The notes beneath the pieces were generated by a model that was not told the DNA's origin, searched no databases, and worked only from the letters and a program-made list of their open reading frames with translations. A stretch of 64,000 nt of DNA from Escherichia coli (GTDB taxonomy: Bacteria; Pseudomonadota; Gammaproteobacteria; Enterobacterales; Enterobacteriaceae): assembly GCF_013122565.1 (NCBI RefSeq), contig NZ_CP053258.1. One strand, 5' to 3'. A program made the position numbers and the translations under genes. Position 1 is the first letter of the stretch, and each line of letters starts with the position of its first letter. This document shows positions 41,889 through 42,857 of the stretch, in pieces.

Positions 41889-41910
41889 GACGGCCTCTGC
41901 GGAGGCCGTC
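41889..41910. terminator. hairpin between convergent pntB and tqsA
   Basis: inverted repeat gacggcctc-tgcg-gaggccgtc; its right arm overlaps the tqsA stop codon. Confidence 0.55.
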
Positions 41911-42857
41911 ACTCTTTATTGAGATCGCTTAACAGAACGGCGATGCTTTGACCTCCCGCTGTTTGTTCAAGCGCAATTTTGACAATAATTGTTAACGGCA
42001 CGGAAAGCAGCATACCCACCGGTCCTAACAACCATCCCCAAAAAATCAACGACAAAAATACCACCAATGTGGAAAGTCCCAGCCCACGCCCCATGATGCG
42101 TGGCTCCAGAATATTGCCGAAGACCAGATTAATCAGCAGATATCCCGCCAGCACCAACAACGCTTCGTAGAAGCCATTAAACACCAGTACCTGAGCGATA
42201 ATCGAGGGCGGCGAGCATCGCCCATGCGACCAGGCCGGTGATGATGCTGATGGCTGTTTTCAGCACCAGATAATGAGACACACTGTCAATCGCACGCTGA
42301 ATCGCCGCCATCCCTTCAACCGGACGCGCCATCATTTGCTGAAATTTTCCGGGCAATTGTGGCACTTCGAGCAGCATAAACAGCACCGTCAGCAGCAATA
42401 AAAATATTGATGACATGGCATTAGATAACTGCGTCAATAAGTTGGTGAGCAACGTCATCGCCGCGTTCGGATCAATGTAATGCGCCAGTTGGTCAACTGA
42501 GACGTCAATCCCTACGCGTTGCAACAACGGCTCAAGAGCTTGCAGCGGCGTCATAATAGAGTTGCGATATTGCGGTAACGTCCGCGTCAACTCGTTGAGC
42601 GCGGAACCCAGATAAGCTAACAGCAACACCATAGCCATCACGATGATGGTCATCAAAATCGACACCGCCAGTACACGCGGCACTCGCCAGCGGACCATGT
42701 GTTGCACCAGCGGGTTAAGAATAACAGCAATAAATAATGCGAGAATAAACGGCACGATGATCTCGGCGGCAAAACGGATACCGCAGAGAATAATGACCAG
42801 CATTCCCAACATAATGACGATTTTTAGGCCATTGAGCGTGATGATCGGCTTTGCCAT
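41909..42857 (-). pseudogene. tqsA: AI-2 exporter family gene tqsA (ydgG), apparently disrupted into two reading frames
   Basis: ORFs 42177..42857 (226 aa) and 41909..42184 (91 aa) are both TqsA-like but in different frames; the first ends ...[11 protein letters not shown] and the second frame reads [16 protein letters not shown]... Confidence 0.6.

Follow-up and report, generated by a model that had tools for sequence, protein, structure and literature searches.

The tqsA (ydgG) gene, which specifies an AI-2E-family transporter when intact, appears to have been inactivated in this strain of Escherichia coli by a real, strain-private internal deletion of 86 bp, giving rise to a recent loss-of-function allele; the probability of this reading is estimated at about 0.9. 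The whole remnant occupies positions 41909..42857 on the minus strand of the window, the 64,000 nt stretch of DNA analysed here, and is 949 bp long, as against 1035 bp for the undamaged gene. The gene is well known and non-essential, and what remains of it is a recent pseudogene of an ordinary sort, not a new kind of feature.

The remnant is divided between two minus-strand open reading frames (ORFs), as listed for the window between 40500 and 44500. The 5' fragment (42177..42857) begins at an ATG and encodes 226 aa, made up of TqsA residues 1-219, covering H1-H4 and TMH5, and a tail of seven out-of-frame residues (YRSGTGV) that ends at a TAA stop codon. The 3' fragment (41909..42184) would encode 91 aa from an internal GTG, equivalent to V254, and corresponds to TqsA residues 254-344, beginning with the three final residues of HP1 (254-256) and continuing through TMH6 and HP2 to the C-terminus. 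These ORFs share 8 nt (GTGTTTAA) and are read in different frames, the original tqsA frame being intact from I249 onwards. When compared with the NCBIfam profile NF008930, the 226 aa fragment covers positions 1-221 of 344 with a score of 401.7 bits, and the 91 aa fragment covers positions 254-344 of 344 with a score of 179.8 bits, under the curated cut-off of 318 bits; in place of a single uninterrupted ORF of ~344 aa spanning the profile, there are these two partial matches. The identity of the gene is nevertheless clear, as 947 of the 949 retained nucleotides are identical to the tqsA of strain 14EC033. The remnant is also found in the conserved position, between pntB and the genes ydgV, mdtJ, mdtI and ydgD, and the gene order pntAB-tqsA-ydgV-mdtJI-ydgD is collinear with that of strains 14EC033 and 100181.

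The extent of the lesion was defined by alignment to the intact tqsA of strain 14EC033 (1035 bp, encoding the 344 aa protein WP_001118241.1). Only one gap was found, corresponding to nucleotides 658-743 of the gene, a loss of 86 bp. The junction (42200..42201, minus strand) falls between window positions 42201 and 42200, where the gene strand reads CTCGAT/TATCGCT, the slash marking the point in GAT/TAT from which 86 bp of the reference are absent. The missing DNA takes in the codons for V220-P247 and two of the three bases for P248; as it is 3 x 28 + 2 nucleotides in length, its loss shifts the frame, such that translation ends after D219 and the sequence YRSGTGV. One 86 bp deletion thus took out codons 220-247 together with two bases of codon 248, and translation from the normal start would produce TqsA residues 1-219, seven out-of-frame residues and then a stop. 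The initial annotation, made from the sequence alone, had described tqsA as split into two minus-strand ORFs of 226 and 91 aa in different frames, and both are present at the positions it gave, the former ending as it reported in a ten-residue stretch followed by YRSGTGV and the stop. Its suggestion of an internal, frame-shifting deletion somewhere within 42177-42230 is borne out by the single gap and by the mapped junction; likewise, the length it gave for intact TqsA was correct (344 aa, 1035 bp), and the shortfall it put at about 86 bp in a locus of 949 bp is exactly that.

Beyond this gap, the gene shows little sign of change. The only other differences from the tqsA of 14EC033 are two single nucleotide polymorphisms, both synonymous (GCG>GCT at Ala75 and GAA>GAG at Glu109), residues 1-219 and 249-344 are identical to those of the common E. 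coli TqsA, of the WP_001118241.1 type, and the promoter-proximal 140 nt upstream of the gene differ from the reference at one base. The deletion is therefore likely to be recent, as tqsA shows no decay other than the 86 bp gap, and the combination of undecayed remaining sequence with a lesion absent from the relatives searched is that of a pseudogene formed by recent deletion.

The distribution of the allele was assessed by comparing window positions 41700-43100 with 5,426 complete E. coli genomes using megablast. The locus was found in 5,422 of these, and the full-length matches listed were all in two pieces, nearly all of them spanning 1487 bp against the 1401 bp of the query, which shows that it is the window that is 86 bp short. 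A 40-mer centred on the junction, which seeds a match only where the deletion is present, had no hit among the 5,426 genomes (0/5,426), and neither the GTDB species representatives nor the JGI metagenome contigs contained a 30-mer across the junction (CGCCGCCCTCGATTATCGCTCAGGTACTGG). Conversely, 5,418 of the 5,426 genomes (99.85%) carry a single copy of the missing 86 bp. The exact 226 aa product has a single contig on record among ~15 billion proteins, in the Logan assembly of run SRR11451224. As the junction occurs in no other genome searched, the allele could serve as a clone-specific marker.

The lineage of the strain itself appears to be poorly represented among complete assemblies: the closest of the 5,426 genomes has just 99.0% identity over 24 kb (window 30000-54000), and only 15 records reach at least 99% identity to this region. 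With the closest complete genome at this distance, the deletion is not datable by a close relative. A Shigella origin was considered, given the best identity of 99.0% and the richness of Shigella in pseudogenes, and was rejected, as the window is without IS elements, is collinear with E. coli and has 61 of 62 genes intact, including uidA.

The consequences for the protein can be considered using the cryo-EM structure of TqsA (PDB 7nb6; Khera et al. 2022, PMC9475539), in which each protomer consists of an N-terminal domain (H1-H4) and a compact C-terminal domain, the latter comprising TMH5 (189-218), HP1 (222-256), TMH6 (258-283) and HP2 (291-328). Pentamer contacts are made through the N-terminal domain, by H1 and the H3-H4 loop. 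AI-2, which the authors of the structure still term a 'probable' substrate of TqsA, was docked between HP1, H5 and H6, with contacts to Y196, K200, P237, N238, E280 and M284 (PMC9475539). I236 and P237 form the conserved Ile-Pro turn (motif C) of HP1 that lines the substrate pocket, P237 being strictly conserved at the tip of HP1, and AI-2 binding is lost in the quadruple N234L/P237A/N238L/E280Q variant (PMC9475539).

The loss of V220-P248 takes out most of HP1, and with it the Ile-Pro turn and four residues of the proposed AI-2 site (N234, I236, P237 and N238); the frameshift eliminates all of the protein beyond residue 219. The 226 aa product, if made, would keep the N-terminal domain and TMH5 and, having neither HP1, TMH6 with Glu280, HP2 nor the C-terminus, would be unable to form the compact C-terminal transport domain. 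With the HP1 residues of the AI-2 site deleted and the remainder of the sequence cut off, the protein is, when judged against the structure, very probably non-functional and transport lost.

The K-12 counterpart, TqsA/YdgG (UniProt P0AFS5; PDB 7nb6), is an AI-2 exporter of the AI-2E superfamily (TC 2.A.86; PF01594; NF008930). The gene described here shares with it a locus between pntB and ydgV-mdtJI, but differs in that most of HP1 (V220-P248) is deleted and the frame shifted, meaning no full-length protein is possible. A closer functional parallel is the laboratory tqsA deletion of Herzberg et al. (2006). In the account of that work given in PMC9475539, knockouts are reported to have increased biomass, motility, biofilm formation, intracellular AI-2 and lsr expression. 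The natural allele resembles this mutant in losing the transport domain, and an equivalent phenotype would be expected, although it still specifies the first 219 residues, and these could become inserted in the membrane. By analogy with the published knockouts, the strain would have higher intracellular AI-2, lsr expression, biofilm formation and motility. E. coli also encodes three AI-2E paralogues of TqsA, namely YhhT (46% identity), YdiK and PerM (PMC9475539), which may buffer the loss.

The gene is dispensable, and other E. coli lineages break it differently. For instance, strain CFSAN004176 (NZ_CP014583.1, excerpt 2710-3106) has an independent internal deletion of 637 bp in tqsA, covering nucleotides 120-756, which leaves the same 91 aa C-terminal ORF as that in the window. 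More than 1000 contigs have this ORF on record, suggesting that alleles like that of CFSAN004176, or similar ones, are fairly widespread in draft genomes. In strain MBT-5 (NZ_CP058682.2, excerpt 3616-5021), tqsA breaks off at around nucleotide 128, where it adjoins a prophage-like element encoding a tyrosine integrase. RefSeq labels both of these loci tqsA pseudogenes. Neither shares a breakpoint with the window (nucleotides 120-756 and ~128, compared with 658-743), which rules out a deletion hotspot common to these strains. The 5' part of tqsA may be a site of prophage integration, and some of the approximately 250 complete genomes in which no contiguous match to the locus was found may carry an insertion of the MBT-5 type.

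These other disruptions bear on whether the deletion was selected, with the loss of TqsA raising intracellular AI-2, biofilm formation and motility to the benefit of the strain in its niche. The knockout phenotypes, as relayed in PMC9475539, fit such a scenario, as do the independent disruption of tqsA in other lineages and the absence of a contiguous match of at least 80% across the locus in ~251 of 5,422 complete genomes. However, a lone private allele carries no signal of selection, the retention of the 86 bp segment in the great majority of complete genomes indicates either purifying selection or the lack of a general advantage to losing it, and at least the MBT-5 disruption stems from a prophage, whose insertion may be due to att-site preference and not to selection on tqsA. 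Adaptive loss is consequently thought unlikely. A non-neutral effect of either kind, whether through an adaptive knockout or through interference with YhhT by an expressed N-terminal domain of 219 residues, is similarly considered improbable; were such interference to occur, retention of AI-2 would be stronger than in a clean null.

Recent inactivation by deletion also has to be distinguished from an error of assembly or sequencing, by which 86 bp would have been dropped from an intact tqsA; the initial annotation had left the choice between a strain-specific lesion and an assembly error undecided. The junction has been seen in only one strain and read set, but it is present in identical form in the Logan contig SRR11451224_16, which is 59.6 kb in length, was assembled from raw reads and matches the window with 100% identity across the 20,681 bp compared. 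This contig ends at approximately window position 29,858, inside a fumB paralogue and thus within the span of the window, indicating that it represents a different and more fragmented assembly. That a separate read-based assembly shares the junction makes an assembler artefact unlikely, although both assemblies may stem from the same sequencing run, and so share an error of sequencing or library preparation, and the agreement is one between assemblies and not between reads. The two nevertheless agree base for base over 20.7 kb. Furthermore, the breakpoints sit in unique sequence, with no homopolymer and no repeat longer than 6 nt in their flanks, arguing against collapse by the assembler, and neither graph collapse nor homopolymer miscalling would explain the clean loss of 86 bp from a region that is unique, contains no homopolymer and occurs once per genome.

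A generally error-prone assembly would also be expected to leave frameshifts elsewhere in the 64 kb, but the alignments of 61 other reference genes run their full length without gaps or frameshifts, with tyrS cut by the window edge. The initial annotation's statement that every other gene in the window has its expected length holds with the one exception of rsxC, which differs in frame by a single 96 bp unit. Together, the second assembly, the unique breakpoints and the absence of the allele from the complete genomes searched favour a strain-specific lesion, and an artefact is regarded as very unlikely.

The sequence around the deletion was also searched for signs of how it arose. The two ends joined by the deletion share no microhomology (0 bp), and the sole flanking repeat is the pentamer TCGCT, which lies 2 nt inside each breakpoint. 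Slippage between direct repeats was rejected on these grounds, as use of the TCGCT copies would need two extra substitutions. An imperfect inverted repeat of 11 nt with 91% complementarity is found within the deleted segment; however, the DNA folding energy of the segment containing it is no better than that of shuffled sequences (z = 0.41 and 1.01, for either strand), and the arms of the repeat do not match both breakpoints, so a hairpin-mediated deletion was also discounted. The 86 bp segment is absent from elsewhere in the window, ruling out its relocation to a second site there. With no signature to be found in the microhomology, the pentamer or the inverted repeat, the event is classed as a spontaneous deletion of the ordinary kind. 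An Rfam search of window 38000-46000 returned zero matches, and a hidden RNA element at the locus was rejected.

Least credible of all is that the 226 and 91 aa products form a working or altered transporter, or that the N-terminal fragment disturbs YhhT pentamers, since, although the 8 nt overlap with its GTG overlapping the upstream stop would fit translational coupling, the N-terminal domain bears the pentamer contacts and wild-type sequence is kept in both fragments, the two together still lack residues 220-253, nearly all of HP1 including the conserved Pro237, the arrangement is seen in a single strain and shows no conservation that would hint at a function, the GTG start is preceded by just a weak Shine-Dalgarno sequence (AGGT, with a 4 nt spacer), and the 91 aa piece scores under the family cut-off.

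The locus should be annotated as a tqsA pseudogene and not as two separate 'AI-2E family transporter' or 'hypothetical' proteins, and those working on the isolate should be aware that its AI-2 export, biofilm formation and motility may differ from those of reference strains. Beyond the present strain the significance of the allele is slight: it is one more natural loss of tqsA in E. coli, and bears on no open question in quorum sensing.

Several other features of the window were noted. The rsxC gene (7810-9933, minus strand) contains an in-frame tandem repeat of a 96 bp unit at 7856-8278, present in 4.4 copies with a 90% match, and the encoded protein is 32 aa, or one unit, shorter than that of strain 100181, representing a copy-number polymorphism in the linker region of RsxC. 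Between uidC and ydgA, approximately 150 bp of REP/BIME-like sequence (gccggatgcggcg...cgccttatccagcctac) is found at 25304-25455, flanked by two near-identical terminator-like hairpins (acgccggaga/tgaaaattctccggcgtt). Strain 100181 has only ~30 bp between the same two genes, making this an intergenic repeat-element polymorphism. Finally, the adjacent paralogues ynfE and ynfF (53793-58700), which have ~71% protein identity, are both intact in the usual E. coli arrangement.
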